From an uncultured Nitrospiraceae bacterium (GTDB lineage Bacteria; Nitrospirota; Nitrospiria; Nitrospirales; Nitrospiraceae): 64,000 nucleotides of DNA. Each line of letters starts with the position of its first letter. Within the stretch, counting starts at the first letter, position 1. Positions 1 through 17,204 of this stretch are shown here, piece by piece. The DNA lies in the NCBI GenBank assembly GCA_963730935.1, contig CAVSTP010000003.1, positions 704,001 to 768,000 on the forward strand, in the 5' to 3' direction. Both the position numbers and the translations under genes were made by a program. The notes below the pieces were generated by a model. It saw only the letters and a program-made list of their open reading frames with translations, did not search any database and had not been told where the DNA came from.

Positions 1-853
<853 letters not shown>

Positions 854-937
854 TCTACTTTGCTCCTGATAGACATGGTCTTCATGCAATCACACAGCGG
901 TCAATGCTCGTGAAGACCTGCTTCAGTGTAGAATGTT

Positions 938-1053
<116 letters not shown>

Positions 1054-1060
1054 TTACAAC

Positions 1061-1095
1061 AAAGAGCCTGCTAGAGCAATCTAGCAGGCTCTTTT
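1061..1095 (+). terminator. Rho-independent terminator of rRNA operon
   Basis: AAAGAGCCTGCTAG-AGCAAT-CTAGCAGGCTCTTT followed by a T-rich tract. Confidence 0.9.
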
Positions 1096-1361: not shown

Positions 1362-1766
1362 ATGGTGACTCCAAGCCTCTACGAGCATCTGCATGACTCT
1401 ATTGTCATCAACTACGCTAGACCATTCACGGCCAATGACGGTTACAGCAAGATCGATGGTCGATACGAGAGGTTCAACGAACAAGAGTTTCAAGAACTTC
1501 ATGATAGGTTGCTCCGACTTCGACACAGGGTGCTTGCTCATACCGCCGCGGAGGCATCAAAAGTTCTAGAGGAGTTTGAGGAGCATGCAAATTCCAAATG
1601 TTATACGGTGAAAGTGAACCGCGCGAGGATGCCGCGAGAAGAATTTCACAAGGTGCGGCGACTTTGTCTCGATCTACTGGTCCGACTCGAAGGGGAAGCT
1701 TTTGGGAGGATAGAAGCATTGGAGCGAATTACGGGCATGACGATGCCAAAATCTTGGGAACTCTAG
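1362..1766 (+). CDS. Hypothetical protein, HEPN-like (Rx4-6H) putative RNase
   Basis: 134-aa helical ORF with INYARPF...LRHRVLAH. Confidence 0.6.
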   Translation: MVTPSLYEHLHDSIVINYARPFTANDGYSKIDGRYERFNEQEFQELHDRLLRLRHRVLAHTAAEASKVLEEFEEHANSKCYTVKVNRARMPREEFHKVRRLCLDLLVRLEGEAFGRIEALERITGMTMPKSWEL

Positions 1767-1798
1767 CCGATGAACCCAGGCTATCCTTCTTGCAATCC

Positions 1799-2239
1799 AT
1801 GAACGAACCACGCCTTGCGGCCAATGAAATCCAGGAGCAGGTACTTAATAGACTTGAAAAGTACAAGAGCTTCAATGTCCTCGAACAATTCGCGATGTTT
1901 ATGGGAATGGCGCAAGTTCTAGAAGTTGGCTTAAAGAACCTGCTGAGTCGTCGGTACAAGTATGACCTTGAGAAAATAGAAACCTGGACACTAGGGAAAA
2001 CCACAAGGGAGCTGAAAGAGTGCGGTCTGCGAGCTGACTTTATTGCACTTCTAGAGAGCGTCGTTCAGTATCGCAACCACATTGCTCACGAGTTGTTAGT
2101 GAATGACGCAATGCTGAAATGTATCTTGGGCGGTGAGAGCGGAAGGCTTGAACTGAAACAGCTGGAGAAAGGAATCTACGAGCTGGAGCAAATTATCTTC
2201 CTGCACGACTGGTGCGAAGAGCATAACGCGTGGGGCTAG
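1799..2239 (+). CDS. Hypothetical protein, HEPN-like (RNHIAH) putative RNase
   Basis: Start taken at MNEPRL; YRNHIAHE motif; lower GC than flanks. Confidence 0.65.
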   Translation: MNEPRLAANEIQEQVLNRLEKYKSFNVLEQFAMFMGMAQVLEVGLKNLLSRRYKYDLEKIETWTLGKTTRELKECGLRADFIALLESVVQYRNHIAHELLVNDAMLKCILGGESGRLELKQLEKGIYELEQIIFLHDWCEEHNAWG

Positions 2240-2375: not shown

Positions 2376-2548
2376 CCTGTGGCTCATCGCTCGTTCTGCA
2401 GGCGCACGGCAATTCGCGAATCCGCTGAATCCCAGCCGGCATCGAACGGATAGCCGGCGCTGTCGATGTCGATGACCTACGGGGCGTGATCCGAGGGTTT
2501 AGGTTTTCCCTTCCGCGCCTCGCGATCGATTTTCGCGCAGGCAACGCG
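2376..2548 (-). pseudogene. xth 3'-end remnant R1
   Basis: Ungapped match (~82% by eye) to 9663-9835; translates RVACAKIDREARKGKPKPSDHAP*VIDIDSAGYPFDAGWDSADSRIA. Confidence 0.93.
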
Positions 2549-2795
2549 TCTTCTCGCTTTGTGAAGTTGCGCGCCGATCTTTCGGCAGCTGCCGATAGGA
2601 CGGCGTAGAACGCTTCGTCACGTTAGTCTTTCCTCATCATCAGACGCCAGGTTCTTCAGCAACAATCCCTTTGCTGTCCATCACTTGCGTCCTCAATGTC
2701 CGATCCTCTGTCGCTTGGAACGGTCTATGCGCGAGAGGTATTGGTACAAACGATCTGAAGAGACAGAAGCTGGCAATAGTGCAAGGAGGAACTAT

Positions 2796-3782
2796 ATGAA
2801 AGCCGCAATCGTCCCCGCCGTGAGCAGTTCTTGGCAGATCAAAGATGTTCCTCAGCCTGAGCCGGGACCAAGCCAGGTGCTCGTGAAGATGCACGCAAGC
2901 GGCATCTGCTACACCGATGTGCACCAAACGCTCGGCCACATTCCAGGACCATTTCCTCGCATCCTTGGACATGAGCCAGTGGGCGAGATCGTCGCCATCG
3001 CTCCTGATGTGACCGCTCGCAAGGTCGGCGAGCGGGTCGGCTCGGCATGGGTTCAGTCCACCTGCGGACGCTGCGAGTGGTGTCAGCGCGGCCGCAAGAT
3101 GTTCTGCCCCTATATGAAGGGCACGGGCGGCGAGGCGCAAGGCGGGCACGCCGAGTACATGCTGATGAACGCCGACGCGACGTACCTGATTCCTGACAAG
3201 GTGACCTACGAGCAGGCCGCACCGATCTTTTGCGCCGGGTATACCGTGTATAGCGGGCTTCGCTGGGCCGATCCGCAACCCCACGAGCGCGTGGCCGTAC
3301 TGGGAATCGGCGGGCTTGGGCACCTGGCCGTGCAATACGCGAAAGCTGCGGGCTTCGAGACCATCGCGATCTCGCATTCCCCCGATAAGGACAAGATGAT
3401 TCGCGAGCTGGGCGCGGATGAAGTGGTCCGCAACGGAAAGAGCCTTGCCGATGCGGGCGGCGCCGACATCATCCTCAGTACCTCCAACTCGACCAAATCC
3501 ATGATGGACAGCATTCAGGGTCTGCGCCCGGACGGCCGGTTCATCGTGATGGGCGCGGACGTGGAACCGCTTTCGCTCTCGTTGGCCGAGTTACTCTTCA
3601 AGCGCATCAAAATCATCGGCAGCCAGCAAAATGGCCCCGAATATCTGTACGAAGCCCTGGACTACGTCGCCAAAGGAAAGGTCAAATCGATCATTGAAAC
3701 TTACCCGTTGGCCGAAGCTGTGAAGGCCTACGAGCGCGTGGCGGAGGGCAAGACCCGCTTCCGCGCTGTGCTCACAATGTAA
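2796..3782 (+). CDS. Zinc-dependent alcohol dehydrogenase (AdhP-like, MDR family)
   Basis: GHE motif, CGRCEWCQRGRKMFC Zn site, GIGGLG; SD AGGAGG. Confidence 0.93.
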   Translation: MKAAIVPAVSSSWQIKDVPQPEPGPSQVLVKMHASGICYTDVHQTLGHIPGPFPRILGHEPVGEIVAIAPDVTARKVGERVGSAWVQSTCGRCEWCQRGRKMFCPYMKGTGGEAQGGHAEYMLMNADATYLIPDKVTYEQAAPIFCAGYTVYSGLRWADPQPHERVAVLGIGGLGHLAVQYAKAAGFETIAISHSPDKDKMIRELGADEVVRNGKSLADAGGADIILSTSNSTKSMMDSIQGLRPDGRFIVMGADVEPLSLSLAELLFKRIKIIGSQQNGPEYLYEALDYVAKGKVKSIIETYPLAEAVKAYERVAEGKTRFRAVLTM

Positions 3783-3824
3783 TGGGGCTGTGCCCGACCG
3801 CTAATTCATTGCATGAGGTGTTCT

Positions 3825-4682
3825 ATGACTACACACACGAAACTCATTCTGGTGACCGGCGCGACAGGACAGCAAGGGGGCGCAGTAGCCAGGGTTTTGC
3901 TCAACAAGGGGCAGAAAGTTCGGGTCATGACGAGACGCCCGGAAAAAGCCGCCGCACTTGCGAAGGCGGGCGCAGAGGTGGTCAAAGGAGACCTGACGAA
4001 CCAGGCCGACCTTCAGGCGGCATTGCGTGGGATATATGGAGTGTTTGCCATGTCCACTCCGTTTGAGGCCGGGATGGAGGCGGAGGTACGTCAGGGCGTC
4101 TTGCTGGCCGATGCGGCCAAACAAGCCGGGGTCGCGCACTATATATATACGTCTGTGAACGGCGCCAATCGTCATACGGGAATCCCGCACTTTGACAGCA
4201 AGTGGCAGGTCGAGCAACACATCGCGAAGATCGGCTTGCCCACGACCATCCTGCGCCCTCCCTTTTTTATGGACAACCTTACGACCGTTGGAAAGCCGTC
4301 TCCTGAGGGCGTGCTCACCATGCCGATGCGACCGGATAGAAAGCTGGGCATGGTCGCAGTCAGGGACATTGGCCAGTTCGGGGCGGCCGCATTCAGTCGT
4401 CCGAAGGATTTTCTCGGGAACGCTATCGACCTGGGGGGCGATGAATTGACCATCCCGGAGGTGGCCGCGCTATTAACTAAGGCCATGGGGAGATCCATCC
4501 GGTTCCAAGAGTTTCCACTCGACCAGGCGGAAGCCGCGATGGGCCATGATCTCGCCACGATGTTTCGCTGGTTTAACGACGTTGGATATACAATCGATGT
4601 ACCAGGCCTGACGAAGAAGTTCGGGATTCCTCTGACCTCTTTTACAGAATGGATGAAGACGGTCGAATGGCCGAAGGGCTGA
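3825..4682 (+). CDS. NmrA/HSCARG family NAD(P)-binding protein
   Basis: ILVTGATGQQGG, PHFDSK. Confidence 0.92.
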   Translation: MTTHTKLILVTGATGQQGGAVARVLLNKGQKVRVMTRRPEKAAALAKAGAEVVKGDLTNQADLQAALRGIYGVFAMSTPFEAGMEAEVRQGVLLADAAKQAGVAHYIYTSVNGANRHTGIPHFDSKWQVEQHIAKIGLPTTILRPPFFMDNLTTVGKPSPEGVLTMPMRPDRKLGMVAVRDIGQFGAAAFSRPKDFLGNAIDLGGDELTIPEVAALLTKAMGRSIRFQEFPLDQAEAAMGHDLATMFRWFNDVGYTIDVPGLTKKFGIPLTSFTEWMKTVEWPKG

Positions 4683-4751
4683 CCGCTAAAATTGCCGATG
4701 TACTGAACGCGCATATCGCAAGCCGTACTCAATGCCAAGAGGAGACAAGCC

Positions 4752-5114
4752 ATGGCCTTCAGCATTTCGACCTTGCTGACCCGCAACCTCCATGACGTTT
4801 TTGGTGAAAACGATCCCGTGCGTCGGCGCGCGGCCATCGACGAGATCTTCACTGAAGATTGCATATTCTATGAGCCCAGGGGTGTCTACCATGGGCGCGA
4901 CGAGATCGATCGCATCGCTGGCGCGATCAAGGCTACTCACCCTGACTTTCGATATCAGCCACTTGCCGAGCCCGAGGAATTGGGCAATGTCGGGCGAGTC
5001 CGGTGGGTATCGGGTCGCCCTGGTGAGGTTCCAGCTTACGCCGGGACTGATTTCATAATCGCCAGGGATGGCCGCATTGCTGGCGTGTATCTCTTTTTCG
5101 ATAAGGTGCCCTGA
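4752..5114 (+). CDS. SnoaL/NTF2-like protein
   Basis: NLHDVFGENDPVRRRAAI...GTDFIIARDGRI; SD GAGGAG. Confidence 0.88.
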   Translation: MAFSISTLLTRNLHDVFGENDPVRRRAAIDEIFTEDCIFYEPRGVYHGRDEIDRIAGAIKATHPDFRYQPLAEPEELGNVGRVRWVSGRPGEVPAYAGTDFIIARDGRIAGVYLFFDKVP

Positions 5115-5208
5115 GCAGTGAACTCAATTGCGGGCCCACGTCTGACAGGCCATCACACATGGTGGAGCCTACGGTCTGAGGGTGCCATTAGAAAACAAGG
5201 AGAATGCC

Positions 5209-5832
5209 ATGAGCAATCAATCCCATCCCTACCTGCCTCTCACTCCACAAAACGCAGCGCTTGTCCTCGTCGATCATCAGGTCGGTCTCATGACCGGCGT
5301 CCGTGACTATTCAACCGGCGAACTGAAACACAACGTCGTGGCCCTGGCCAAGGCTGCGAAAGCCCTGAAACTGCCCATTATCGTCACCACGACGGCGCGC
5401 GACAGCATGTGGGGTCCGACCTTCCCCGAGCTTGTGGAAGCGCTGCCAGGTATCGAGATCATTGATCGCTCTTCCGTCAACGCCTTCGACGACGCACGCG
5501 TCGCTCGTGCGATCGAGGCGACCGGCCGCAAGAAGCTCATCTTTGCCGGAATCTCACTCGAAGTCTGCGCGGCGTTTCCCGCCATCACAGCGGTGGGTAA
5601 GGGGTTCGACGCCTATGTGGCAGTCGATGCCTCGGGGACCTTCAGCGAGACGAAGCGGCAAGCTGGGCTCTTGCGCATGCTTCAGGCAGGGGTCGTTCTC
5701 TCGGACTACGCGACCTTGATGGTGGAAATCCTCAAGGACAACGCGCGACCGGAGGCCGGTGAGGTCTACGGCGCTATGGATATGGCTTGGGCCAAGCTTG
5801 TAGGTCAAATCGCCCAGGCTTACGGAAAGTAA
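5209..5832 (+). CDS. Isochorismatase-family hydrolase (YcaC-like)
   Basis: LVDHQVGL, GISLEVCAAFPA. Confidence 0.9.
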   Translation: MSNQSHPYLPLTPQNAALVLVDHQVGLMTGVRDYSTGELKHNVVALAKAAKALKLPIIVTTTARDSMWGPTFPELVEALPGIEIIDRSSVNAFDDARVARAIEATGRKKLIFAGISLEVCAAFPAITAVGKGFDAYVAVDASGTFSETKRQAGLLRMLQAGVVLSDYATLMVEILKDNARPEAGEVYGAMDMAWAKLVGQIAQAYGK

Positions 5833-5870
5833 GAGGCAAACTGCCTTTTGAAGGGCATCCGGTTGGGCGC

Positions 5871-6017
5871 GACCCTGTGGGCTCATCGCTATTTCCGGAG
5901 GCGCCCCGCGATTCGCGACTCCGCCGAAGGCCAGCCGGCGTCGAAGGGATGGCCGGGGTTGTCGATGTTGATGACCAGCGTGCGTGACTTTTCGTGAAGG
6001 CCAGTAGACATCGCGGT
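5871..6017 (-). pseudogene. xth 3'-end remnant R2 (internal deletion)
   Basis: 5871-5987 matches 9660-9776 and encodes LVINIDNPGHPFDAGWPSAESRIAGRLRK*; AGACATCGCGGT at 6006-6017 resembles 9826-9837. Confidence 0.92.
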
Positions 6018-6093
6018 CGACGGCGGTGACTTCGTGAGGCGGGCCCGCTAATATTCCATTGCGCTGTCCGTAATCTAAGCCAAAGGAGATCGG

Positions 6094-6636
6094 ATGAACA
6101 CCAGAATCGGGACGTTCTCTTGGGCCGCGTTGTTGCTCGCTCTGTGGATGGTTCCCGCATGGGTAGAGGCACAAACGCCGCGTCAGCAGGCGGAGAAAGA
6201 GCTGCAACGAAAGGCACCGAACGCCGGAGTGGAGGCCTGTTCTCTGATTACGCGCGCCGACGTGAAGGCTGCCACCGGCAGGGATCCGTTTGTCGACCCC
6301 GAGTCCGCCGGCCAGGGCGGCTGGATGTGCAACGTCGGCACTGGCGAATTGAAGGTGTATTCGGGCCCGAAATCGTCGGAGACATGGGAGTCCACACTGC
6401 AGAGTTTCAAGATGGACAAGGAGCCGCGGACGCCGGCTCCAGGCTTCGGCGAGCAATCCTACTTCCTTTACCCAAAGCCGGCGAAGAAGTCTCAAGGCAA
6501 CGTCGCGGTCTTGGTTGCGAAGTCTGGCAACCACACGCTCGTTCTGTCACTCGACGCACCCGATGACAAGCCGGCCGAGTCAATGCGCCCAGCGCTCGAA
6601 TCGCTGATGAAAACGATCCTCGCCCGGCTGCCATGA
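6094..6636 (+). CDS. Secreted protein (DUF3558-like ACSL-T motif)
   Basis: Signal peptide; EACSLITRADVKAATG; SD AAGGAG; resembles 11886-12419. Confidence 0.8.
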   Translation: MNTRIGTFSWAALLLALWMVPAWVEAQTPRQQAEKELQRKAPNAGVEACSLITRADVKAATGRDPFVDPESAGQGGWMCNVGTGELKVYSGPKSSETWESTLQSFKMDKEPRTPAPGFGEQSYFLYPKPAKKSQGNVAVLVAKSGNHTLVLSLDAPDDKPAESMRPALESLMKTILARLP

Positions 6637-6643
6637 GAAGGTA

Positions 6644-6759
6644 CCAGCCGGCGTCGAACGGATGGCGGGCTGTCGATGTCGATGACCAGCGGTTCGTGAT
6701 CGGAGGGCAACGGTTTTCCCTTCCTCGCCTCACGATCGATCTCGGCACAGACATCGCGG
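6644..6759 (-). pseudogene. xth 3'-end remnant R3
   Basis: ~94% match by eye to 9719-9829 with a 2-nt deletion. Confidence 0.94.
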
Positions 6760-6900
6760 GGTTGATTTGCTGTTCGCCGACCCTAAGGCCGGCTATGGAG
6801 CCTTGACAGAGACTGGCAAACGGGATAATGAAACGCTCCCGTCTGGGCTCCCTGTGCTGATCAGGTCTTCGTACTACGGTGGCCAGCAGCAGACCTTTCA

Positions 6901-8187
6901 ATGCTCCTTATGCCTAAGGATCAAGTCCAGCCTCCCGTCATCGTCGTTCCAGGGATCACAGGAACGGGTCTGGAGGACTATTATCCAATCCCACCGGAGG
7001 AAGTGTGGTCCGCCGTTCTCAAGAAGAATTACGAACGTATCTCGATGCATCCGGATAATCCTCGCTATGAGGCGCTTGAGCCGGCGCGGGTGCAGCCACA
7101 TGGCATCTTTGGAATCATCTACGAAGATCTGGTCGAGGCCCTACGTCACGACTTGATGATAAGACGTACGGAGCCAACCCCAGTCTTTCCGTTCAGCTAT
7201 GACTGGCGACAGGACTGCACGCAGTCCGCTGACTTGCTCGCTGGTTTTATTGAAGAGGTCATCGAACGGACCGTACTCCTTCCTCATTACCGAGAAGCAA
7301 GTAAATCGCTCTGTGTCGACCTCGTGGCCCACTCGATGGGTGGCCTTATCGTAGCTGACTACCTGACACGTTACGGCAAAGAAAAAAAGGTTCGTCGTGT
7401 CGTATCGATTGCTTCACCTTTCGAGGGTGCAATCGACGCCATAGAAAAAGTTTCAACAGGCATGGGTACGTTGACCGGCTCATATCCACGAGATAGAGAA
7501 CGCGAAGCGTCCCGTACCATTCCGGCTATCTACCAGCTGCTACCGTCATATAGTGGTGCCATCGAAGACGAGCCTGGACAGCCGAATGACATCTTTGACG
7601 TTCAGACTTGGCGCGTATGGCAGCGTTCAGTCTTGATGACTCTGCGCGAGTACATCCGCCTGCATAAGGCCGAGATAGACCCCGAAAAGCTTCTGGGACA
7701 GTATCTAGAGACAGCATGGAAACATCGGCAACGGATCAGAAAACTAAATTTGGCGCAAGTTCTGTCGGAGGGCGTGAAGGGTTGGATGGCGATAGCGGGG
7801 CTAGGAGAGCCGACCCGAATAAAAGTCGAAACAAAAAAGGATGTCGGAGGACGGTGGTTTGCATTTGCGCCGCCGGTCGAAGAGTGGAAGAATGATCACA
7901 GCAGTATGAAAACCGGGGATGGGACCGTTCCATTTGCAGGGGCGATACCACGCTTTCTTAAAATTGAGAATCTAGTCTGTATCAGCCGAGCCGAGTTCGG
8001 CATATTCGAACTTGGTGATCGGGCACTCGCCCTGGGGGCCGGGCTTCATGCGGCTCTCCCTACAGTCAACCTCGTTCAACGGCTGACGATTAAATTCCTG
8101 CGCCGCGAATATTCCGGCGATATCGAGGCGAGGCCCGCTCCCGGAGTGACCACGCCGGAATGGCCAATGGACATTCCGGTAAAATAA
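6901..8187 (+). CDS. Alpha/beta-hydrolase lipase/acyltransferase (LCAT-like)
   Basis: VVPGITG, FSYDWR, AHSMGG nucleophile elbow, GDGTVP. Confidence 0.85.
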   Translation: MLLMPKDQVQPPVIVVPGITGTGLEDYYPIPPEEVWSAVLKKNYERISMHPDNPRYEALEPARVQPHGIFGIIYEDLVEALRHDLMIRRTEPTPVFPFSYDWRQDCTQSADLLAGFIEEVIERTVLLPHYREASKSLCVDLVAHSMGGLIVADYLTRYGKEKKVRRVVSIASPFEGAIDAIEKVSTGMGTLTGSYPRDREREASRTIPAIYQLLPSYSGAIEDEPGQPNDIFDVQTWRVWQRSVLMTLREYIRLHKAEIDPEKLLGQYLETAWKHRQRIRKLNLAQVLSEGVKGWMAIAGLGEPTRIKVETKKDVGGRWFAFAPPVEEWKNDHSSMKTGDGTVPFAGAIPRFLKIENLVCISRAEFGIFELGDRALALGAGLHAALPTVNLVQRLTIKFLRREYSGDIEARPAPGVTTPEWPMDIPVK

Positions 8188-8250
8188 GTCCCAACCGGAT
8201 GTTCATGGCGTCAGTTCAGAAACAAGGCCGAAGCACGAAAGAGGTCAGGC

Positions 8251-8345
8251 CTATTGAGGCTTTGACACGCGCCCTGCAATTCGCGATCGGCCCAGACAAC
8301 GCACTGTTTTAACGGCGCTGTCACGAGCAGGTGATCGATCCGCAT
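8251..8345 (-). pseudogene. xth 3'-end remnant R4 (large internal deletion)
   Basis: MRIDHLLVTAPLKQCVVWA (cf. xth MRIDHLLVTTTLQHRVVWA) joined to SRIAGRVSKPQ*. Confidence 0.85.
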
Positions 8346-8364
8346 CATTGCGTGTTTTAGCCGT

Positions 8365-9567
8365 TTACCTGGGCGAATCCATTCTTCTTCGGACGAAGGG
8401 TGAATCCCAACGACTCCACAGAATTCCAAGAGCATTAAGCCATGGCGTCATGATCATCGTGGCCGCGACGACAATGATGCCAGTGGAGAATTGAACCTGC
8501 GTTTCTGTGCCGAGGGCCAATAACTCGCCAAGTGCCACGAAAGCAAATTCGCTGCATTGAGCGAGGAGAAAGGACATCCGAGCCGCCGCACCGTGTTGCA
8601 TGCTCATCGCTCGGGCGGCCAGATATAGCACGACAATCTTGAACGCGATGATCGCAAGGACGTGCAGAAGAATTATTGCGACATGTCCGCGCAGTACGCT
8701 GAGATCAACCGTCAGTCCTACGGAGACAAAAAACAGTCCCAGCAAGAGATTCTTGAGTGGCAGAACTTCCTCTTCCAATCGATGTCTGTACTCCGAGCTG
8801 CCCAGCGACACACCCGCGATGAACGCTCCCATGGCCATCGAAAGACCCGTGGAAGAGGCGAGCCATGCGCCGCCGAACAGGGCAATAAAAATGATTGCCG
8901 TAAAGGTTTCGCCGAAGTTTGGGGCCACCGCGAGGCGCAGGAGTCGGGGCCAGACGTACCGGCCAACGACGAAGATGATGATCATGGCCCCTGCGGCGTA
9001 CAGGACATCCCCCCATACGAAGCTCTCTGCTGATCCAGTCCCGGCAAACACCGGCAGCAAGGCGAGGATCGGTACGACGGTCAAGTCCTGAAATAGAAGC
9101 AGGGCTAAAGTCGCCTGTCCATATTCTTGCTCCAGTTCGCCTTTTCCTTTCAGGAGCTGGAGCACAAGCGCTGTAGATGAGTTTGACGCGACTAGTCCGA
9201 AAAGAAGCGCAAGAGACCAGGAAGGCGCGAAGAAGCGCCAATAAAACATCATCGCCAGACCGGTTCCAATCACTTGCGCGGCTCCAAGGCCGAAGGCATA
9301 TCGTCGCAGCGACCAGATTTTCCGAGGATCGAGCTCGAGTCCGATCACAAAGAGAAAGAAGACCACGCCCAGTTGCGAAATGTCGGTCAGGCGTCCAATC
9401 TGGCTGGTATTGAGGACATGTGATGATCCCAAAATGATTCCGGAGAGTAACAGCCCGAGTTCCGGACCGATCCCAAGCCGCCGAGCGAGGGGAATCATCA
9501 CGGCACTGATGGTGAGCAGCAACGTGACGGCCACTACTATATCCGGCAATGAGATATAGGGGTTCAA
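8365..9567 (-). CDS. CPA2/KefB-like cation:proton antiporter, membrane domain only
   Basis: GVVFFLFVIGLE, LLFQDL, LGLFFVSVG, QCSEFAFV; no C-terminal KTN domain; TTG start with SD GGAGG. Confidence 0.85.
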   Translation of the reverse strand: MNPYISLPDIVVAVTLLLTISAVMIPLARRLGIGPELGLLLSGIILGSSHVLNTSQIGRLTDISQLGVVFFLFVIGLELDPRKIWSLRRYAFGLGAAQVIGTGLAMMFYWRFFAPSWSLALLFGLVASNSSTALVLQLLKGKGELEQEYGQATLALLLFQDLTVVPILALLPVFAGTGSAESFVWGDVLYAAGAMIIIFVVGRYVWPRLLRLAVAPNFGETFTAIIFIALFGGAWLASSTGLSMAMGAFIAGVSLGSSEYRHRLEEEVLPLKNLLLGLFFVSVGLTVDLSVLRGHVAIILLHVLAIIAFKIVVLYLAARAMSMQHGAAARMSFLLAQCSEFAFVALGELLALGTETQVQFSTGIIVVAATMIMTPWLNALGILWSRWDSPFVRRRMDSPR

Positions 9568-9676
9568 GCTGAGCCTCCCAATTCGACCACGCGTGTCATC
9601 GCGGATTTCGTATTGCTATGCCGACCGATCGTCAGGACAAGTGCACCTTGGACGCCTCAGACCCTGTGGCTCATCG

Positions 9677-10552
9677 CTATTTCCGCTGGCGCCCCGCAAT
9701 GCGCGACTCGGCCGAAGCCCAGCCGGCGTCGAACGGATGCCCGGGGCTGTCGATGTCGATGACCAGCGGTGCGTGATCCGAGGGCAACGGTTTTCCCTTC
9801 CTCGCCTCGCGATCGATCTCGGCCCAGACCACACGGTGTTGTAAGGTGGTGGTCACCAATAAGTGGTCGATGCGCATGCCGATGTTTTTGTGAAAATTGC
9901 CTGCGCGATAATCCCACCAGGTGTAACGCCCCGGTTCCGGGTGATGCAATCGGAATGCATCGACGAATCCCGCGCTCGAAAGCCCTGCAAAAGCTTGCCG
10001 CTCGCGCTCGGAAACGTGTGTCCCGCCTTGACAAGCACTGGGGTCCCACACATCGGCATCTTCGGGCGCCACATTGAAATCACCGCCGATGACGGCCGGT
10101 GTATCCGAAGTGACGGCCCGACTGATCCAGCGAGCCAGCCTGTCGAACCACACGAGCTTGGCTTCATAAAACGGTGAATCCACGAGCCGGCCGTTCGGCG
10201 CGTACACGCAGATGATGCGCACGCCGCCGCATTCGGCAGCGAGCATCCTGGCCTCAGCCATCGGTTCATCGTCACCGGTTTCAGACGTACGGGCCGGCCG
10301 TAATGGCTCTCCAAAATTTGTGATGACGCTGTCGATGCCGCACCGACTCGCGATCGCAACGCCGTTCCATCGACCCTCACCGTGGTGCACCAGCTCGTAT
10401 CCGGCCTGCTTGAAGGGTTCGACAGGCGCATCCGCGTCCCCCAGCTTCGTTTCCTGCATCAGAAGCACGTCCGGCTTCGCCCGATCCAGCCACCACATGA
10501 CCTTCTCAAGGCGAGCCTTCAGCGAGTTGACATTCCAAGTGGCAATCCGCAT
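9677..10552 (-). CDS. xth: Exodeoxyribonuclease III
   Basis: MRIATWNVNS, QETK, GDFNVAP, YTWWDYR, RIDH, SDHAP. Confidence 0.96.
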   Translation of the reverse strand: MRIATWNVNSLKARLEKVMWWLDRAKPDVLLMQETKLGDADAPVEPFKQAGYELVHHGEGRWNGVAIASRCGIDSVITNFGEPLRPARTSETGDDEPMAEARMLAAECGGVRIICVYAPNGRLVDSPFYEAKLVWFDRLARWISRAVTSDTPAVIGGDFNVAPEDADVWDPSACQGGTHVSERERQAFAGLSSAGFVDAFRLHHPEPGRYTWWDYRAGNFHKNIGMRIDHLLVTTTLQHRVVWAEIDREARKGKPLPSDHAPLVIDIDSPGHPFDAGWASAESRIAGRQRK

Positions 10553-10594
10553 GGCTAATGATTCTTCCATTCGGGCCGCGGCGTATGGCGGCAG

Positions 10595-11314
10595 TCACTT
10601 AGCATCATGGAAGATGACGCCGAGCGTAAAGCGTGAACCAGAGTGAATCGTGCTCACGCCGTGCCGCATGTTGACCCGGTAATAGCCCCGGCTTCCTTGG
10701 ACGGGACGGTGCCGCGTCGCAAAGATCACGATTTCTCCCTGCTGAGGGGCCAGGACTTCACCGCGTGATTGTGCCCGCGGTCGCTGTTCCACGAGCAGAA
10801 ATTCACCACCGACAAAATCGCGGTCAGGGCGACTGAGAAAGGCGGTGAGCTGCAGCGGGAAAGCGACGGCTCCATAGATATCCTGATGAAGGCAGTTATA
10901 ATCCCCCGCACCGTAACGAAGTAACAACGGTGTGGGCTTCGTCTGTCCGTTCCGACGACAGACGGCGAGCAGTTTCTCGTGACTCGGCGGAAACGTATCC
11001 CTCTGTCCCAATGCCTTTGTCCAGGCGTTGGCGATCACCGCAAGACGAGGATAGATGTGTTCGCGCAGCGTTTGGACCAGCGACGGCAAGGGATAGGTGA
11101 AGTATTTGTACTCCCCCTCGCCAAACCGAAAGCGCTTCATGTCGATCCGGCTTCGGAACAATTGGTCCTTGCCGTACAGGGCGACAAGAGCCTCGCACTC
11201 GTCGGCCGTCAGCAACGGGTCGGTTTTGGCATAACCCCGCTCCCATAACGATGCTTCAATGGCCTTCCAGTCTAGCTGGACCAGTCGGTCTTGGATGTTG
11301 ACCACTTCAGCCAT
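10595..11314 (-). CDS. 2OG-Fe(II) oxygenase (DUF2086-like)
   Basis: LHQDIYG, GGEFLLVEQRPRAQS, RHGVS, GVIFHDA. Confidence 0.9.
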   Translation of the reverse strand: MAEVVNIQDRLVQLDWKAIEASLWERGYAKTDPLLTADECEALVALYGKDQLFRSRIDMKRFRFGEGEYKYFTYPLPSLVQTLREHIYPRLAVIANAWTKALGQRDTFPPSHEKLLAVCRRNGQTKPTPLLLRYGAGDYNCLHQDIYGAVAFPLQLTAFLSRPDRDFVGGEFLLVEQRPRAQSRGEVLAPQQGEIVIFATRHRPVQGSRGYYRVNMRHGVSTIHSGSRFTLGVIFHDAK

Positions 11315-11353
11315 TTCGTCCTAAGTAATGGATATAATTCGACACCATCCCTA

Positions 11354-11379
11354 TGTCGATTTTGGCCATCGAGAACGAC
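11354..11379 (+). promoter_or_regulatory. ECF42-type promoter
   Basis: TGTCGA-16 bp-CGAC upstream of a YCII/DGPF gene. Confidence 0.65.
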
Positions 11380-11426
11380 TATCTGTCAAGAACATCGTTT
11401 CACAGTCAAATTGGAGGGTCGAAGCC

Positions 11427-11789
11427 ATGAAATATCTGCTCCTGTGTTGCCACGAAGAGAAGAAATGGGACTCCATGTCCAAAAGCGACTGCGACGCCGT
11501 GATGGAAGAGACCATGGCCTATGTCGAGGCGCTGAAGAAGAGTGGTCAGCTTCTTGCGGTAGAGCAACTCGACCCCATAAAGACGGCCATAAGCGTGAGA
11601 ATCCGGAGCGGGAAGTTGTCCGTGACCGACGGTCCCTATGCTGAAACGAAAGAGCAGCTCGGTGGCTTTTTCCTGATCAGCGCCCGAGATCTGAACGAGG
11701 CGATCCAGGTGGCCTCGAAGTTTCCGTCGGTGCGCTTCGGAACCATGGAGGTGCGGCCGGTCAGGGAAATTCCCGGCAGCGGCCACTAG
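11427..11789 (+). CDS. YCII/DGPF-domain protein
   Basis: MKYLLL...VTDGPYAETKEQLGGFFLI...MEVRPV. Confidence 0.92.
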   Translation: MKYLLLCCHEEKKWDSMSKSDCDAVMEETMAYVEALKKSGQLLAVEQLDPIKTAISVRIRSGKLSVTDGPYAETKEQLGGFFLISARDLNEAIQVASKFPSVRFGTMEVRPVREIPGSGH

Positions 11790-11885
11790 TCGGCGCGGCG
11801 TTGATGCTATGAATCACGTTTGGCTGTTGCTATACTGCCGGACTCCGATTTCCCGCCAGTCGTCGGTTTCAAACCGGAGGTGCAG

Positions 11886-12419
11886 ATGCTGCCGTTCAGT
11901 CTTGCCATGATCCTGATCGCGTTGCTCATATCGCCTGCCGACGCGAAAGAAAAATCGGCTTGCTCATTGCTGACCTCGAGCGATATTGAGGCTGTCGTTG
12001 GCGGGAAAGTGAGCGCGAGCCAGCCGATTCATTTTGATGACATTCCGAGTGGCAAGAAGACCGTGAAAGCGTACGGCTGCCTGTGGGGCGTCTCTACTAT
12101 AGGGCAAGTCTCCATCAGTTGGTTTGAAGGACCCCTCACCGATGACGAGATCGCCCAGTTGATCAAGATGACCAAGAACAATCCGGGAACCGAGGACCTT
12201 AAAAAGGCCAACTATAAAGAAACAGCAAAAGATTTTCCCCAAGCCTCGTGCTCAAGCTATACACCCCCGGCCGGTGCCAAAGATGGCATGCCCATGTCCA
12301 CCTGTGCCGGTGGAGCAAAGGGGCATGGTCTTACGCTCACGTTCATGAGCCCCAGCAAGACACTCACGATTGATCAGACGAAGGCCCTCTTGGACAAGGC
12401 CGCTTCGCACGTCCACTGA
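11886..12419 (+). CDS. Secreted protein (DUF3558-like)
   Basis: Signal peptide; SACSLLTSSDIEAVVG; SD GGAGG. Confidence 0.78.
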   Translation: MLPFSLAMILIALLISPADAKEKSACSLLTSSDIEAVVGGKVSASQPIHFDDIPSGKKTVKAYGCLWGVSTIGQVSISWFEGPLTDDEIAQLIKMTKNNPGTEDLKKANYKETAKDFPQASCSSYTPPAGAKDGMPMSTCAGGAKGHGLTLTFMSPSKTLTIDQTKALLDKAASHVH

Positions 12420-12513
12420 GGCTGCACCTGGTCAATGCTATCCTGCCGAGTTTGGCGAGAGCGCTCGTCGATCGATTCCAACCACCGCTTGAACACTTAG
12501 CCTTTGAGGGCGG

Positions 12514-12539
12514 TGTCGATTTCTGGAATCTCGTTCGAC
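12514..12539 (+). promoter_or_regulatory. Second ECF42-type promoter
   Basis: TGTCGA-16 bp-CGAC, same spacing as 11354. Confidence 0.6.
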
Positions 12540-12601
12540 TACAAGATACGAGGTTACGTCGTAATCGTGCTGGGCATCAACTAGAAAAAGGAGAAATAGC
12601 C

Positions 12602-13048
12602 GTGGGAACTAATACCATTCGACTCCATCGCGTGCTTCGTGCAACACCGGAACGGATCTATCGGGCATTTCTCGATGCAGATGCCATGGTGAAGTGGCTG
12701 CCGCCAAATGGATTTACGGGCAAGGTGCATCACATGGATGCCAAAGTCGGCGGCACTTTTAAGATGTCGTTTACGAATTTTACGACAGGCAAGAGCCACT
12801 CCTTTGGCGGTAAGTATCTTGAACTCGTGCCCCATGAGCGCCTGCGGTATACGGACAACTTCGACGACCCGAACCTGCCTGGAGAAATTCACGTGACGGT
12901 CACCTTGAAGAAAGTCTCTTGCGGAACGGAAGTTCATATCGTGCAAGAAGGCGTGCCTGATGTGATTCCGGCAGAGGCCTGCTACCTCGGCTGGCAAGAA
13001 TCGCTCATTCTTCTTGGGAAACTCGTCGAAGCGGAGATCCCAGACTAA
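12602..13048 (+). CDS. SRPBCC/AHSA1-like protein
   Basis: TIRLHRVLRATPERIYRAFLD...CYLGWQESL; GTG start after AGGAGA. Confidence 0.9.
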   Translation: MGTNTIRLHRVLRATPERIYRAFLDADAMVKWLPPNGFTGKVHHMDAKVGGTFKMSFTNFTTGKSHSFGGKYLELVPHERLRYTDNFDDPNLPGEIHVTVTLKKVSCGTEVHIVQEGVPDVIPAEACYLGWQESLILLGKLVEAEIPD

Positions 13049-13117
13049 TATCGCCGGCTGAGGAATAGAAAGGGGGTCGCAAGTCTCTCTTGCTGACGGG
13101 GTAGTAAGGAGGGCTGC

Positions 13118-13762
13118 ATGAGCAAGGTGAAAGTCGCGGCGTTTACGGTGTCGCTCGATGGATTTGGTGCGGGGCCCCGACAGGATTTGCAGAATCCGCT
13201 AGGAGTTCGTGGGGAAGAACTGCATTCCTGGTTTGTAGACACGGACGTCTTTAAGAAAATGAACGATCAAGGCGAAGGGTCGCATGGCATCGACAATGAT
13301 TTTGCCGCGCAGTCAATGGACAATATGGGCGCCTGGATTTTGGGGCGGAATATGTTCGGGCCGGTGCGCGGTCCCTGGAAAGACGAGTCCTGGAAGGGCT
13401 GGTGGGGGGATAATCCGCCGTACCACACGCCGGTATTTGTGCTCACGCATCACTCACGAGCGCCCCTGACGATGGAAGGCGGCACGACCTTTTACTTTGT
13501 GACCGATGGCATCGAGTCGGCCTTAAAGAAAGCGAAAGCGGCGGCCAAAGGCAAAGACGTTCGGATTGGTGGCGGCGTTGCCACGATTCGTCAGTACCTG
13601 ATCGCCGGCCAGATCGATGAGATCCACCTAGCCATTTCGCCGATTTTGTTGGGAGAAGGGGAGCATCTCTTTGCCGGCCTCAATCTCCACGCTCTCGGGT
13701 TCACATCCATCAAAACCGTCGCCAGTGAAAAGGCAACGCATGTTCTGATGAAAAAAGGATGA
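13118..13762 (+). CDS. Dihydrofolate reductase/RibD C-terminal family protein
   Basis: SLDGFGAGP, ILGRNMF, IGGG, PILLGEG. Confidence 0.9.
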   Translation: MSKVKVAAFTVSLDGFGAGPRQDLQNPLGVRGEELHSWFVDTDVFKKMNDQGEGSHGIDNDFAAQSMDNMGAWILGRNMFGPVRGPWKDESWKGWWGDNPPYHTPVFVLTHHSRAPLTMEGGTTFYFVTDGIESALKKAKAAAKGKDVRIGGGVATIRQYLIAGQIDEIHLAISPILLGEGEHLFAGLNLHALGFTSIKTVASEKATHVLMKKG

Positions 13763-13842
13763 ACGGGTCGCCTCCGCTGCATAAGTCCTTCCGAAGAGAC
13801 CGATGCCGGCCTGCGATCGGCTCATGACGACCTTTTCTCGTT

Positions 13843-14535
13843 TTAACGGGTAATAAGCCCATCGGTGATGCCGTAGGCGAGGGCATAGCAAATGAAGATT
13901 CCTATGCCGCCGGCGATACCTGCCAGGACGGAGTCCCTCCACCCGCCGTTGGTCACGTGTCTTGCCATCAGCGCAAAAATAATCGCGATGCCGAATTCGC
14001 CAAGGATGATGTAGTAGGGCGTGTTGGACAGCATCCGGCAATTGCTATATACCCACCAGTTGATTCGGCGTGCCATTTCTTCATAATAAGGGATGTTGAT
14101 CGCACCCAAGACACCAATCGCGACCAGTCCCCACCTGTCGAACCGATTCCAAAGCCACAGACCGATATAGCCGAACTGCACAGCGACGACTTCCCAGGCA
14201 AAAGGCATCCAGAGGGGAGAGCGCCAAATCATGGGTCCGCCGCCGATGGCATAGTCCAACGTCTTGGTGTAATCCACCAGCCACGCATCGGCAATCAACT
14301 CAGCAAATCCTACGGTAAGGCCGAAGACAATGAATCGCGCCAGGACCCAGTCACGGCGCAAGATGATGAAACCGGCCAGCAGGGAATTATCGATGATATT
14401 AAGCGCGACTCCGGTTTTCCAATCCGACCACGGTGCGAGGCTCAGCAATGCGACGGCGACAACGTTGATGGCGATAGTAGCCAAGATGATTTTGAGACGG
14501 GCATCAGCAAGCGAGCTTTCAGCGGTCAGTTCCAT
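13843..14535 (-). CDS. Hypothetical integral membrane protein
   Basis: 230-aa multi-TM ORF. Confidence 0.8.
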   Translation of the reverse strand: MELTAESSLADARLKIILATIAINVVAVALLSLAPWSDWKTGVALNIIDNSLLAGFIILRRDWVLARFIVFGLTVGFAELIADAWLVDYTKTLDYAIGGGPMIWRSPLWMPFAWEVVAVQFGYIGLWLWNRFDRWGLVAIGVLGAINIPYYEEMARRINWWVYSNCRMLSNTPYYIILGEFGIAIIFALMARHVTNGGWRDSVLAGIAGGIGIFICYALAYGITDGLITR

Positions 14536-14576
14536 GCCTGATCTACGTGTTGGAGCATGCGCTGGATGTTTCGATG

Positions 14577-14644
14577 GGGTTGGATCAGAAATGCACGCAT
14601 TTCTCTTCCAACCCGTTGACGCTTGTATTCACGAAGAGTACCCT
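14577..14644 (+). promoter_or_regulatory. 38-bp palindrome abutting a sigma70-like promoter
   Basis: GGGTTGGA-TC-AGAAATGC-AC-GCATTTCT-CT-TCCAACCC, then TTGACG-17-TACCCT. Confidence 0.55.
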
Positions 14645-14710
14645 TACCTGATTTCTCCTCAGGTGATCAACCGAATCTGACTGCCTTTTCGGTTACCCCA
14701 AGAGTATTCC

Positions 14711-15322
14711 ATGAATGAAACGATCGTGGCGGCGATCATAGGTGGGGCGGCCGGCGTTTTGCCCGTTGTAGTGACAAGAATCTTTGGGCGGCTCGAGAGT
14801 CGAAATCAGACGAGGCAGCAGGTGCAGGCGCTTGATCTTGCCAAAAAGCGAGTGGACTTCTTGCAATCTTGGATGGGCGCCCGGAAGAGCTGCCTCCCGC
14901 GAGAGACCGTTGATGTCTCAATTCAGGAAGCCTTCAAGGAGCTGGATGAAATCCGCTTATCCCTTAGGCGCGTCCTTGAGAAGACGGTAAGTCACGCGAG
15001 AAGTCATGAAGAGCGCCCATTCATACAGCGTCTGTTGTTGGCCTATAAGCCGAAGAGGATGTCTGGTTGGTGGTGGCGGGTGGCCTATTACACATGGACC
15101 GGTGCCATTGCGGCGAGCATTCTCGACGGGGTCATTCGACGGGACTTCTTTACGGGGAGAGACGATGATGGAAGCTTTTCGGTGGCTGTACTTATCGGTG
15201 AAATAATCGGCGCGGTCTTGCTGATTCTTCCTTCTGTATTCTTTCATCGACGCGCCGTGCGATCTGATATCGCTCAAATGAAAGGTGCCGCTAAAGATCA
15301 GACAGGACAAGTTGCGGGATGA
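14711..15322 (+). CDS. Hypothetical membrane protein
   Basis: N-terminal TM, coiled region, two C-terminal TMs. Confidence 0.7.
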   Translation: MNETIVAAIIGGAAGVLPVVVTRIFGRLESRNQTRQQVQALDLAKKRVDFLQSWMGARKSCLPRETVDVSIQEAFKELDEIRLSLRRVLEKTVSHARSHEERPFIQRLLLAYKPKRMSGWWWRVAYYTWTGAIAASILDGVIRRDFFTGRDDDGSFSVAVLIGEIIGAVLLILPSVFFHRRAVRSDIAQMKGAAKDQTGQVAG

Positions 15323-15360
15323 CCGGCTTCCTGAGGATCGTAGTGAGTCTGTGTGAGGCT

Positions 15361-16746
15361 TCAGGGTTCTTTTTCTACTAGATCGATTGCCGCATCCGCT
15401 TCCAGCGCAAAACGGCCTCGGCCTCGCTGGACAAGTCTCACCTCCGGGCATTTCTGCTCAAGGCGTCGGCGGAGTAGGATCAGTCGCGTTTCGAGATTGT
15501 CCTTTAACTCCGGTAGTCCGAGCCAAGAATCCATCCGTAGCTCCCGGTTCGTGAACTCCACCCGACCCTCATCACGATACTGCTTCAGCAAGCGCCAGAG
15601 AATCCGGGCCGGAACATTGCGAATGAGATAGTCGCCATCCACGCAGATGCAGTCGTCCTTCTGAAAGAAAGTAAAGCGGCGTATAGCACCCGAGCGAGAC
15701 GCAGGGATCGGGGCTGCACTTCTGATCCGGTCCATCGGAGCATCGTCCGTCTCGCGGCTGAGTTGGTCGATTGCGGTCGCGAGATGTAAGCCTAAAGTAG
15801 TGAGCAGCGTGTTCTCACGCGGGAGAAAGGCGAGCGGATCCTTGCTTTCGACAGCCAGCACACCGACCAAACGTCCACGACTTACGAGGGGCACGGCGAT
15901 CTGACTGGCCGCGTCGGGGAGACCGGGAAGGGGGATTTCTCGTGCGATCGCCTCGGTGCATCCTAACGCTTCGGCGCGGTCCCGCACCGCGCGTGCATAT
16001 CGCAAGCCATGATCCATGGCCGACAGATAGAGCGTCCGCCGAGCCCGCGCGACCATGCCGATGAGACCTTCGCCGGCTCCAACCTCGGATCCCACTCCAT
16101 TTTCTGCATAGCCGTGGCTCGCAATTGTCAGCAGCTTCCTATTCTGCTCATCTGCGAGCAGGATCTTCGAATGATGGAATCCAAACTGTTCATCAAGGAG
16201 CCGCAGCGAGGCTTGAAGGACTTCATCGAGCGACTGTGCCTTGTTCAGGCACTCGGAGATCACCCGCATCGAAACCAGGCCCGAGTCCACAAAGAGGCGT
16301 GACGAACGCTCGGATGGTTGGGGAACAGGTAGTCGTGTGAATCCCTCCAAGCATTCGACGTCGAGCACCTCGTACACATCGGCGGCGAGTAGGCGAAACA
16401 CGTCAGTCATGCCCGAGTAGGATGCCACCGCCTGGAGTTGAAGCGACATGGACTCGAACAACGGGCCGGTCGATTCCGAATGATCAAAGCGGAGTCGAAA
16501 GCGATAGGCATGCAACGTTCGTGGGTCGAGGACCATGATGCAGGCAAAAGGATTCTCACGAACGTTGCGATGGGTCTTGTTGAAGAATTGAAACGAAATG
16601 GCTACGTGCTTCGTGTCCACATAGTAGACCTGACTGATAAACGTGATGTTCGGCGTGCCGTCGCTCGCGCAGGTACTCAAGGCTGCGGGAACGATCCCCT
16701 GAAAGCATGCCCATAGATCCTCAAGTTGCGGCGGCGTCTTTTTCAT
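15361..16746 (-). CDS. PNPOx-like (FMN split-barrel)-GAF-winged-helix transcriptional regulator
   Basis: N-term STCASDGTPN..FFNKTHRNV; central GAF; C-term FTNRELR..NLETRLILLRRRL..GRGRF. Confidence 0.85.
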   Translation of the reverse strand: MKKTPPQLEDLWACFQGIVPAALSTCASDGTPNITFISQVYYVDTKHVAISFQFFNKTHRNVRENPFACIMVLDPRTLHAYRFRLRFDHSESTGPLFESMSLQLQAVASYSGMTDVFRLLAADVYEVLDVECLEGFTRLPVPQPSERSSRLFVDSGLVSMRVISECLNKAQSLDEVLQASLRLLDEQFGFHHSKILLADEQNRKLLTIASHGYAENGVGSEVGAGEGLIGMVARARRTLYLSAMDHGLRYARAVRDRAEALGCTEAIAREIPLPGLPDAASQIAVPLVSRGRLVGVLAVESKDPLAFLPRENTLLTTLGLHLATAIDQLSRETDDAPMDRIRSAAPIPASRSGAIRRFTFFQKDDCICVDGDYLIRNVPARILWRLLKQYRDEGRVEFTNRELRMDSWLGLPELKDNLETRLILLRRRLEQKCPEVRLVQRGRGRFALEADAAIDLVEKEP

Positions 16747-17204
16747 CCCCCGATCCTCTTTCCCGCACCTGGCCCTGGCGTCTGATCGAAGACATCAGTG
16801 ACGGTCATTTCCACGGCGACGGTCGGTTCGGCGATCCAGGCTTCACCCAGCGTGGAGGGCACGCCAATGGCTGTGAGCTCGGCCATGAATTCACGATGCC
16901 ACCGCTTGCTCGTCTCTCGATCAACGGACGTGACCGACTTCATGCTTCGGACCTGACCTTTCAGCTGGCAGGTGATGTGGTCCGTAGGTCGCGTGCACGT
17001 CACTGCAATTTTGCCGTTTTCACGCAAGTTCTCGATGGTCTTGCCGGCGATCGCTTTGGACAGAAGAATCGTGACGGTACGCCGGTCGGCCGCGGTGTGG
17101 ATGCCCCACGCACGCGTGCACTCCGGCATGAGTGACGCATCGCGAGTGCCGACCATGACCGAGATGCCCGTCTGGAGGAGAGCGACGATCGAGTCGGGAA
17201 TCAT
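16743..17204 (-). CDS. Pyridoxamine 5'-phosphate oxidase family protein
   Basis: VGTRDASLMPECTRAWG, QLKG, FDQTPGPGAG; ATGA-coupled to the regulator. Confidence 0.85.
   Translation of the reverse strand: MIPDSIVALLQTGISVMVGTRDASLMPECTRAWGIHTAADRRTVTILLSKAIAGKTIENLRENGKIAVTCTRPTDHITCQLKGQVRSMKSVTSVDRETSKRWHREFMAELTAIGVPSTLGEAWIAEPTVAVEMTVTDVFDQTPGPGAGKRIGG

Follow-up and report, generated by a model that had tools for sequence, protein, structure and literature searches.

Truncated 3' ends of an accessory exonuclease III gene separate exchangeable cargo beside the rRNA operon of Nitrospiraceae

We analyzed a 64-kb window (contig CAVSTP010000003.1, positions 704,001 to 768,000) of the 4.05-Mb genome of an uncultured Nitrospiraceae bacterium, here called G000; other G- and L-numbers denote the genomes and loci compared with it. 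In this window, an intact minus-strand exonuclease III gene, labeled xth2 (9677-10552), and the single rRNA operon lie tail-to-tail. Between them, partial copies of the xth2 3' end (remnants R1-R4) alternate with unrelated cargo genes up to the 5S rRNA gene, which forms the far border (Table 1). This architecture is confirmed as real and occurs across the family Nitrospiraceae. Sequence comparison supports the view that the remnants are former xth2 gene ends separating exchangeable cargo. As an explanation, we tentatively favor, at somewhat short of an even chance, an additive island without an integrase, enlarged by homologous recombination at xth2 and reusing the remnants as homology arms.

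A BLASTN search of xth with its flanks against the whole genome placed partial copies at four sites only, all downstream of xth2 and in the same orientation. A profile HMM of related alleles scored these four at E values of 1e-10 to 1e-40 genome-wide, with the core xth gene as the sole further match and zero matches on reversed loci. Both methods therefore confirmed the four co-oriented copies reported by a first-pass annotation, which had been made by a model from the sequence alone. That annotation had described the copies as the last ~50-65 codons of the gene, roughly 80-95% identical to it. R1 does cover about 57 codons, but the extents of R2, R3, and R4 differ, and the BLASTN identities were 73-91%. 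R1 matched at 143 of 173 positions without gaps and contained one in-frame stop. R2 matched at 106 of 118 positions and R3 at 112 of 123, each with frameshifts, and R3 lacked the stop codon of the gene. For R4, the BLASTN alignment (8287-8345; 43 of 59 matches, 73%) stops short of a tail of the last ~13 codons, and the annotated end at 8251 was right. R4 consists of nt 676-749 joined to these last codons over a deletion of ~100 nt between two ATCGCGA words. Its 5' piece is of a foreign type, while its gene end and tail are of the type found in G030.

The cargo assignments of the first-pass annotation held in Pfam and NCBIfam searches: ADH, NmrA, SnoaL, and isochorismatase, a protein of no family, LCAT, and a CPA2/Kef-like antiporter. 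Its four cargo gaps stood, whereas a fifth module between R1 and the 5S gene, the 5S border itself, and the paralog status of xth2 had been overlooked. Several of these genes were found in other settings. The isochorismatase also sits behind a remnant in G218, and the 180-aa protein of no family was found upstream of xth2 in G012 and G026. In G030, the LCAT module together with R3 directly follows the xth2 gene (92%). R3 of G000 shows bases particular to its own xth2 that are missing from the G030 ortholog of R3. G030 looks like a state prior to arrival of the Kef module, and, judged against G030, xth2 and R4 show the pattern of a two-arm insertion of that module.

The xth2 product matched the exonuclease III equivalog TIGR00633 at 248 bits (cut-off 99) and contained the catalytic motifs WNVNS, QETK, YAPNG, GDFN, RIDH, and SDH. 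The core xth paralog at C2:771284 is 41% identical, making xth2 a second, accessory paralog. Of 32 further genomes in the genus, only 15 held a close copy of xth2, and its nearest named relatives belong to Nitrospira and Nitrospiraceae. Compared with the G030 gene, xth2 is a mosaic, with divergences of 3.6, 8.2, 11.8, 9.2, and 16.7% from 5' to 3', the last value being that of nt 780-870. The 23S rRNA gene had one match genome-wide (C3:701848-704855), so the window begins inside the sole 23S gene of G000.

Table 1. Features of the xth2-5S interval and its surroundings in the window (nt numbers refer to the xth2 gene).
Feature	Position	Strand	Remarks
23S rRNA, 3' part (genome's single operon)	1-855	+	One 23S match
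5S rRNA, facing anchor	936-1056	+	3' end displaced in many relatives
rRNA terminator hairpin, 15 pairs	1061-1094	+	
Partial 'P' hairpin repeat	1238-1295	not assigned	Fold z -3.4; recurs co-oriented within arrays of relatives
Fifth module, two low-GC ORFs of no family	1362-2239	+	ORFs 1362-1766 and 1799-2239 (start codon of the latter chosen by hand)
Remnant R1	2376-2548	-	nt 717-888, 83%; BLASTN, profile HMM
Cargo: Zn-ADH, NmrA, SnoaL, isochorismatase	2796-5832	+	Pfam/NCBIfam
Remnant R2	5871-5987	-	nt 777-886, 90%; post-stop tail in common with own xth2
Cargo: 180-aa protein of no family, hydrophobic N-terminus	6094-6636	+	
Remnant R3	6644-6764	-	nt 712-835, 91%; ortholog in G030
Cargo: LCAT-like lipase	6901-8187	+	Pfam/NCBIfam
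Remnant R4, chimera	8251-8345	-	Joined at ATCGCGA
Cargo: CPA2/Kef-like antiporter, membrane part only	8365-9567	-	
Intact accessory exonuclease III (xth2)	9677-10552	-	Mosaic
Older accessory block upstream of xth2: 2OG oxygenase, YCII, AHSA1, RibD-like, GAF, others	10595-18193		
Hairpin like 5S terminators of relatives	18231-18266	+	By eye; HMM gave no match; possible old island border

The xth2 3' end was matched in 79 of 371 family genomes, representing 14 of 39 genera. The 68 loci fetched, which were chosen partly for having several such matches, contained 84 partial xth2 copies, 83 of them co-oriented, with up to 12 in one array. All came from the 3' two-thirds of the gene and none from the 5' part alone, and most ran to the gene end. 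The 5' starts were spread continuously from nt 393 to 831 (a further start at nt 293 belongs to a gene interrupted by a contig end). At least one downstream copy was present at 26 of the 46 loci with an intact xth2. Closed xth2-to-5S intervals ranged from 425 bp with no copy to 38 kb with 12 copies (G009), and interval length was correlated with copy number (rho 0.48, p 0.045, n = 18). The complete chromosome of N. moscoviensis NSP M-1 (L082) contained one copy. The arrays of relatives thus vary from 0 to 12 copies with exchangeable cargo, and gene content at this position is not fixed, in keeping with the variable cargo that the first-pass annotation had expected. Only decayed xth2 copies remained in G025, G031, G290, G295, and G378; in the last (L385), only the 5' half is kept, beside the 5S gene. 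In G165 (L172/L328), the intact xth2 lies in the opposite orientation to that expected from a remnant and the 5S gene, being inverted with respect to both.

Over a set of 148 loci, xth2 was multi-copy in 28 of 72 loci, and 15 other island genes gave one multi-copy case; the xth2 pieces comprised 56 3'-pieces, 6 internal pieces, and one 5'-piece. In a control set drawn from other lineages, comprising 67 xth2 loci of which 43 extend 5 kb or more past the gene, no locus adjoins rRNA or has a 3' copy longer than 47 bp. Their self-matches were two of 28 bp downstream, one of 47 bp upstream, and a 63-bp copy of a 5' part. The 63-bp copy, in Gemmatimonadales (L128:14784-14846; 95%, ~4 kb downstream), is the only sizeable one outside Nitrospiraceae. 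Nitrospiraceae loci examined alongside carried remnants in 6 of 13 cases. When 80 5S-flanking loci that lack an intact xth2 were compared with themselves, no similar array on a different first gene came to light apart from the 5S copies in G102. A genome-wide scan for other gene-end arrays was judged unreliable, as its paralog filter hid 2 of 3 xth2 copies visible to BLAST. A metagenome scan (80 loci) yielded a few Nitrospira-like loci with the same layout and no recombinase.

The remnants show a uniform pattern of decay. At columns invariant among intact genes, mismatches at codon positions 1 and 2 amounted to about 7% in remnants versus 0.6% in intact genes, and they were evenly distributed within the remnants, at 4-9% across nt 590-860. 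This even, raised level indicates neutral decay in which no part is preserved. The allele of the same genome was nearest for only 6 of 44 remnants, which argues that most are not local duplicates. A tree of 81 ends (169 columns) was largely unresolved, with 10 of 78 branches starred. It did not show the G009 remnants to be a clade, although a single origin of them is possible; the two remnants of G076 paired (99/91). One copy in G087, starting at nt 463 and lying 5.5 kb downstream behind TIR-domain and other genes, differed from its own gene at 1 position in 148 nt; it ends at a contig break.

Modules move among these arrays. The 58 closed modules measured 478-10973 bp and held one to many genes, and 13 of 80 remnants were followed by cargo that elsewhere directly follows an intact xth2. 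Remnant-bounded modules common to different genera include a deaminase module in G009 and G290b (89%), another module in G084 and G218 (86%), and a PIN module in G009, G025, G216, and G283 (71-82%). Cross-genus modules occupy different array ranks. Some genes of the accessory block upstream of xth2 in the window also occur within arrays of other genomes.

In the mechanism we favor, DNA of another Nitrospira would enter the cell, probably through natural transformation, and pair with the resident xth2, to which it is 80-90% identical, presumably through RecA. A crossover at some point within the 3' half of xth2 would follow. The incoming strand would supply a new gene end with the RIDH and SDH motifs, together with the donor's following cargo, and the far end of the incoming piece would join the resident chromosome within the old 3' half. 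This far joint may use a remnant already carried by the donor as a second homology arm, or it may form illegitimately or at a microhomology, a rare event that would give rise to a new remnant. The old xth2 end would stay downstream, 5'-truncated and decaying neutrally. Swaps, conversions, and pop-outs could then use a surviving remnant as their landing pad, allowing modules and remnants to travel between genera, while the 5S end would accrete in parallel from the opposite side. Variable starts, mosaic genes, chimeric remnants like R4, and modules moving with their borders are all expected from this mechanism, and all were seen. Microhomology at a joint was seen in R4 (one joint). A ComEC domain in an 845-aa frame and a DprA domain in a 382-aa frame, both stop-free, are encoded in G000. 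Transformation, the dependence on RecA, the direction of growth, and the origin of the first remnants are what we infer from these patterns. A more far-reaching version is possible but doubtful: a self-priming, integrase-free cassette platform in which each capture leaves an xth2-tail arm and RecA alone re-inserts, swaps, or excises modules in other genera, together with a hitherto undescribed element whose insertion point is one fixed base pair near the 5S 3' end and which restores gene and terminator.

Several observations weigh against growth by recombination at xth2. Intact xth2 genes without rRNA within 14-16 kb (G125, G132, G134, and G146) carry no remnants; in G134, the 5S gene lies megabases from xth2. 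No 5' remnants were found in 253 kb upstream of the 46 intact xth2 genes, where two upstream copies are 3'-half pieces. The mechanism leaves both patterns unexplained. In just 19 of 35 comparisons did a remnant lie nearer to the kin of the 5' half than the 3' end of the gene itself did. In 8 of 10 arrays, decay was less advanced in the copy at the greatest distance from xth2 (p = 0.11), the reverse of the prediction, and array rank and decay were uncorrelated (rho -0.04, n = 51). Starts differ among members of one module, as would result from deletions eroding a fixed site. The G000/G030 pair is explained equally well by loss of the Kef module through pop-out as by its gain, and competence genes are near-universal, which makes them weak proof of transformation.

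Possible, if on balance doubtful, is the main rival, capture from the rRNA side. Here, donor DNA would be anchored in the rRNA operon, the newest material would lie next to the 5S gene, and the remnants would be donor xth2 ends, with cargo arriving together with a variably long piece of the donor xth2 3' end. The anchor could act through homologous recombination (the operon is 91-97% identical family-wide) or through a trans-acting site-specific element at the 5S 3' end, as in the tycheposon model, in which flanking DNA from other hosts builds up. In its favor, the displaced last 11 nt of 5S with its terminator, behind a constant preceding flank, were found at 19 sites in 14 of the 68 loci, three of them in tandem in G231, and the junction pattern was found in 51 of the 371 genomes (56 matches vs. 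9 for a reversed control). Most of these units are 146-240 bp long and hairpin-rich, and they are present also in genomes without xth2. In the examples examined (G231 (L063), G098, G242, G283, and L316-L333), insertion 11 nt before the 5S 3' end restores the end and the terminator. A fixed crossover with a shared arm is therefore found at the 5S 3' end, with G102 and G295 as exceptions that have longer fragments. In G102 (L334), two 5'-truncated 5S copies, 1.4 and 3.3 kb out, separate a GDPD gene and an SLT gene, which is the same architecture as that of the xth2 array. The truncated copies with terminators in G102 and G295 (L315:9135-9260) measure 80-110 nt, and one in G295 lies 2.4 Mb from the operon.

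Displaced 5S ends also occur 80-110 bp upstream of intact xth2 in G218, G230, and G277a, and G076 carries two 5S junctions just ahead of an SLT gene, ~9 kb upstream of xth2. The terminator-like hairpin beyond the accessory block in the window occupies the same slot as the G076 junctions. Given these displaced ends and this hairpin, the island is probably rooted at 5S and xth2 itself probably part of its old cargo, having arrived there as rRNA-side capture would predict. Capture from this side also better explains the 3'-only bias and the requirement for rRNA adjacency, and it accounts for genes on either side of xth2 and for the decay trend (8 of 10 arrays). Breaks could come from the LAGLIDADG introns that the 23S genes of G009 and G031 contain. 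Against it, a displaced 5S end lay within 400 nt of the truncated side of only 2 of the 84 remnants, no fixed 5S junction was found in G000, and no integrase was found beside 5S across 60+20+68 loci. Donor ends would also have to land within the same 0.5 kb of xth2 much more frequently than chance would allow (12 times in 38 kb in G009), and R4, being chimeric, is not a pure donor end. Growth from the xth2 side and from the rRNA side may both operate.

Two further observations concern the rRNA side. A 'P' repeat of ~180 bp, co-oriented and with a strong hairpin, is nearly confined to the 5S-xth2 interval (G009, G025, G001, and G030). It is located close to 5S, and further copies, as many as six in G009, occur in the part of the arrays that faces the rRNA. 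The 23S insertions, at about nt 2030-2050, encode LAGLIDADG endonucleases (L031:18475-19062 in G009 and L035:10189-10683 in G031), and Rfam identified the G031 insertion as a group I intron. As a general driver, these intron nucleases were rejected, since they were found in 2 of 20 23S genes read across the site and are absent from G000.

Unlikely, in our estimate, is a site-specific integrase or homing endonuclease that acted at a fixed xth2 site and supplied a replacement end, the enzyme having later been lost and the borders eroded by deletions, as in mobile ORFs. The replacement ends do restore the gene, starts cluster at nt 690-730 and are repeated at 463 and 689-690, and borders within one module do shift by deletion. 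Elsewhere in G000, 13 tyrosine and 3 large serine recombinase matches were obtained. However, Pfam scans of 135, 149, 73, 67, and 135 selected ORFs from the intervals and 5S flanks detected neither tyrosine nor serine recombinases nor any homing nuclease within the intervals; the first-pass annotation had likewise noted no integrase in the window. The same scans did show insertion sequence transposases (rve, IstB, IS110, DDE, and Y1 domains). A profile of the G000 tyrosine recombinases had no match in six-frame translations of the 148 loci, a search that a rare transient element could escape. HNH, GIY-YIG, and LAGLIDADG domains were found in 0 of 133 ORFs beside xth2 ends and in arrays, although Pfam-negative ORFs may conceal a distant nuclease. 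Searches of phages and plasmids by BLAST gave no match to xth2, and none of three 5S or junction patterns matched viral contigs. The xth2 motif occurred in two viral contigs only, within unrelated phage ORFs, and was dismissed as chance. The longest members of different modules start at eleven differing positions (394, 443, 463, 476, 523, 573, 591, 603, 632, 661, and 671) with unrelated flanks, and no flanking arm is shared among the long remnants. Crossovers would be expected to give such a continuous spread of starts with no common arm, and an att site would not, which speaks against the integrative docking site in xth proposed by the first-pass annotation.

An integron-like array, likewise proposed there, was not borne out, since no IntI, attC fold, shared arm, or fixed crossover was found. 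G000 had no TIGR02249 match above cut-off; one of five relatives did, in another part of the chromosome than the array. A home-made pattern scan, which used no curated attC model, called no attC in G000, and the xth2 3' end folds no better than shuffles (z -0.95 to +1.07). A hairpin or attC role of this end was rejected on these grounds. The modules are multi-gene, and the Kef gene runs opposite to the other cargo, unlike single co-oriented ORFs in integron cassettes. Of the processes that the annotation had listed, the last, a homology-driven one, fits best. The stretch at 2240-2320 of the window, 3' of a 146-aa ORF, looks attC-like by eye, but its fold z is about +1 and our scan made no call there. 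A short C/T-rich motif recurs beside several remnants (G009, G001, G031, G076, and ~2320-2345 of the window) and is possibly a REP-like repeat.

Quite improbable is an origin of the remnants as whole second xth2 copies, acquired with neighbors or by local duplication, that decayed from the 5' side while the 3' end was kept for the convergent cargo genes. The genomes with only decayed copies, the upstream neighbors of xth2 found within arrays, and the grouping of the G076 remnants would fit such an origin. The even mismatch along the remnants, which indicates that no part is preserved, argues against it, as do the excess of 3'-pieces and the mostly foreign allele type. The region is also unstructured; promoter and terminator scans showed no excess over shuffles and no terminator call in the xth2 end region. 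The chance of a dispersed repeat or an assembly artifact is negligible: although the near-identical G087 copy stops at a contig break, copies are 9-27% diverged, are confined to one interval per genome, and occur in single-contig genomes and in the complete chromosome L082, and the Kef/xth2 side is matched at about 99% by contigs from four soil studies, one of them spanning Kef to the xth2 tail (9197-9696). In four sequencing runs, 1304-2111 and 6152-6555 were uncovered, whereas 8576-13000 was covered almost throughout; contig depth was 3-5, too low to show absence, and the gaps were not counted as evidence. The joints from these runs were short and probably those of other organisms.

The intervals also contained cargo of recognizable function. 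Defense-type genes included SAVED with a DncV-like cyclase, TIR-domain genes, PIN and HTH toxin-antitoxin pairs, and AbiEii (L040:11365-13750 in G001, L162 in G087, L054 in G216, and L181 in G266). DNA-repair genes were common beside the rRNA operon, namely Fpg, Ada, HhH-GPD, ATP-dependent ligase, primase-polymerase, and 2OG oxygenase (intervals and 5S flanks of G009, G029, G218, G230, and L340-L389), and in two genera many genomes had UDG as their first gene. The xth2-5S intervals of L058 (G230) and L069 (G218) include nitrile hydratase alpha/beta with CobW. Mycobacterial XthA acts with LigC and Prim-PolC in excision repair (PMC5663958). Ligase and primase-polymerase genes of this kind lie inside the G230 interval, and a ligase gene lies inside that of G218.

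If the favored mechanism is true, integron-like arrays of exchangeable modules, with defense, toxin-antitoxin, repair, and metabolic functions, could be built and shared between genera by nothing more than ordinary recombination and pseudogene scraps. The arrays would provide a legible record of gene acquisition in key nitrifiers, the nitrite-oxidizing Nitrospira, and would mark a safe landing site beside their single rRNA operon. The 5S junction is a lead to a site-specific element targeting 5S rRNA, a target that was not found described in the literature searched. Likewise, arrays anchored at xth or 5S were not found described for Nitrospira in a search whose scope excluded subscription papers and supplementary tables of integrase targets.

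Compared with known systems, the xth2 arrays share with integrons and CALIN the small tandem cargo, the related repeats between modules, and the sharing across lineages. They differ in that IntI was not found, in that the repeats are pseudogene fragments and not attC hairpins, and in that the modules are multi-gene and in either orientation. In fungal mitochondria, mobile ORFs with homing endonucleases replace the resident 3' end of a gene with a foreign one and leave a displaced remnant; unlike these, the ORFs by xth2 ends and in arrays showed none of the three nuclease families. Replacement islands between conserved genes are alike in having a variable interval and two recombination anchors, one of them rRNA, whereas the xth2-5S content is gained and lost piecemeal, has unrelated functions, and duplicates the anchor ends. 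Protein-coding genes reported as integrase targets include dusA (PMC4482086), trmE/SGI1 (PMC2297512), and yicC (PMC8978831), and tandem insertions are known. The docking gene is protein-coding here as well, but the cognate integrase and fixed attB of those insertions were not found at xth2. Additive islands at tRNA and tmRNA genes, including tycheposons, are alike in that a replacement 3' end restores the target and displaced fragments mark modules, and also in that islands persist without a resident integrase while flanking DNA of other hosts accumulates (Prochlorococcus tycheposons, bioRxiv 10.1101/2020.12.28.424599; Methylopumilus additive fGI-2, PMC10872708; Islander, PMC4383910). Unlike in these islands, the anchors are a protein-coding repair gene and a 5S rRNA gene that face each other, the xth2 fragments measure 50-500 bp with no fixed start in place of 20-40-bp att repeats, and no integrase-bearing element was found in 148 loci. 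The xth2-5S system behaves as an additive island of the tRNA/tycheposon type, yet lacks a fixed crossover at xth2 and a detected cognate integrase. In work attributed to de Vries & Wackernagel and to Prudhomme et al., both of 2002, one homologous anchor with a variable microhomology joint reportedly captures foreign DNA without a recombinase. Such homology-facilitated illegitimate recombination is said to involve single laboratory events that usually delete recipient DNA. By comparison, the events at xth2 are repeated, and the anchor ends are kept, in arrays of up to 12 that are shared between genera. By analogy, the closest mechanism would be homology-facilitated capture during transformation.

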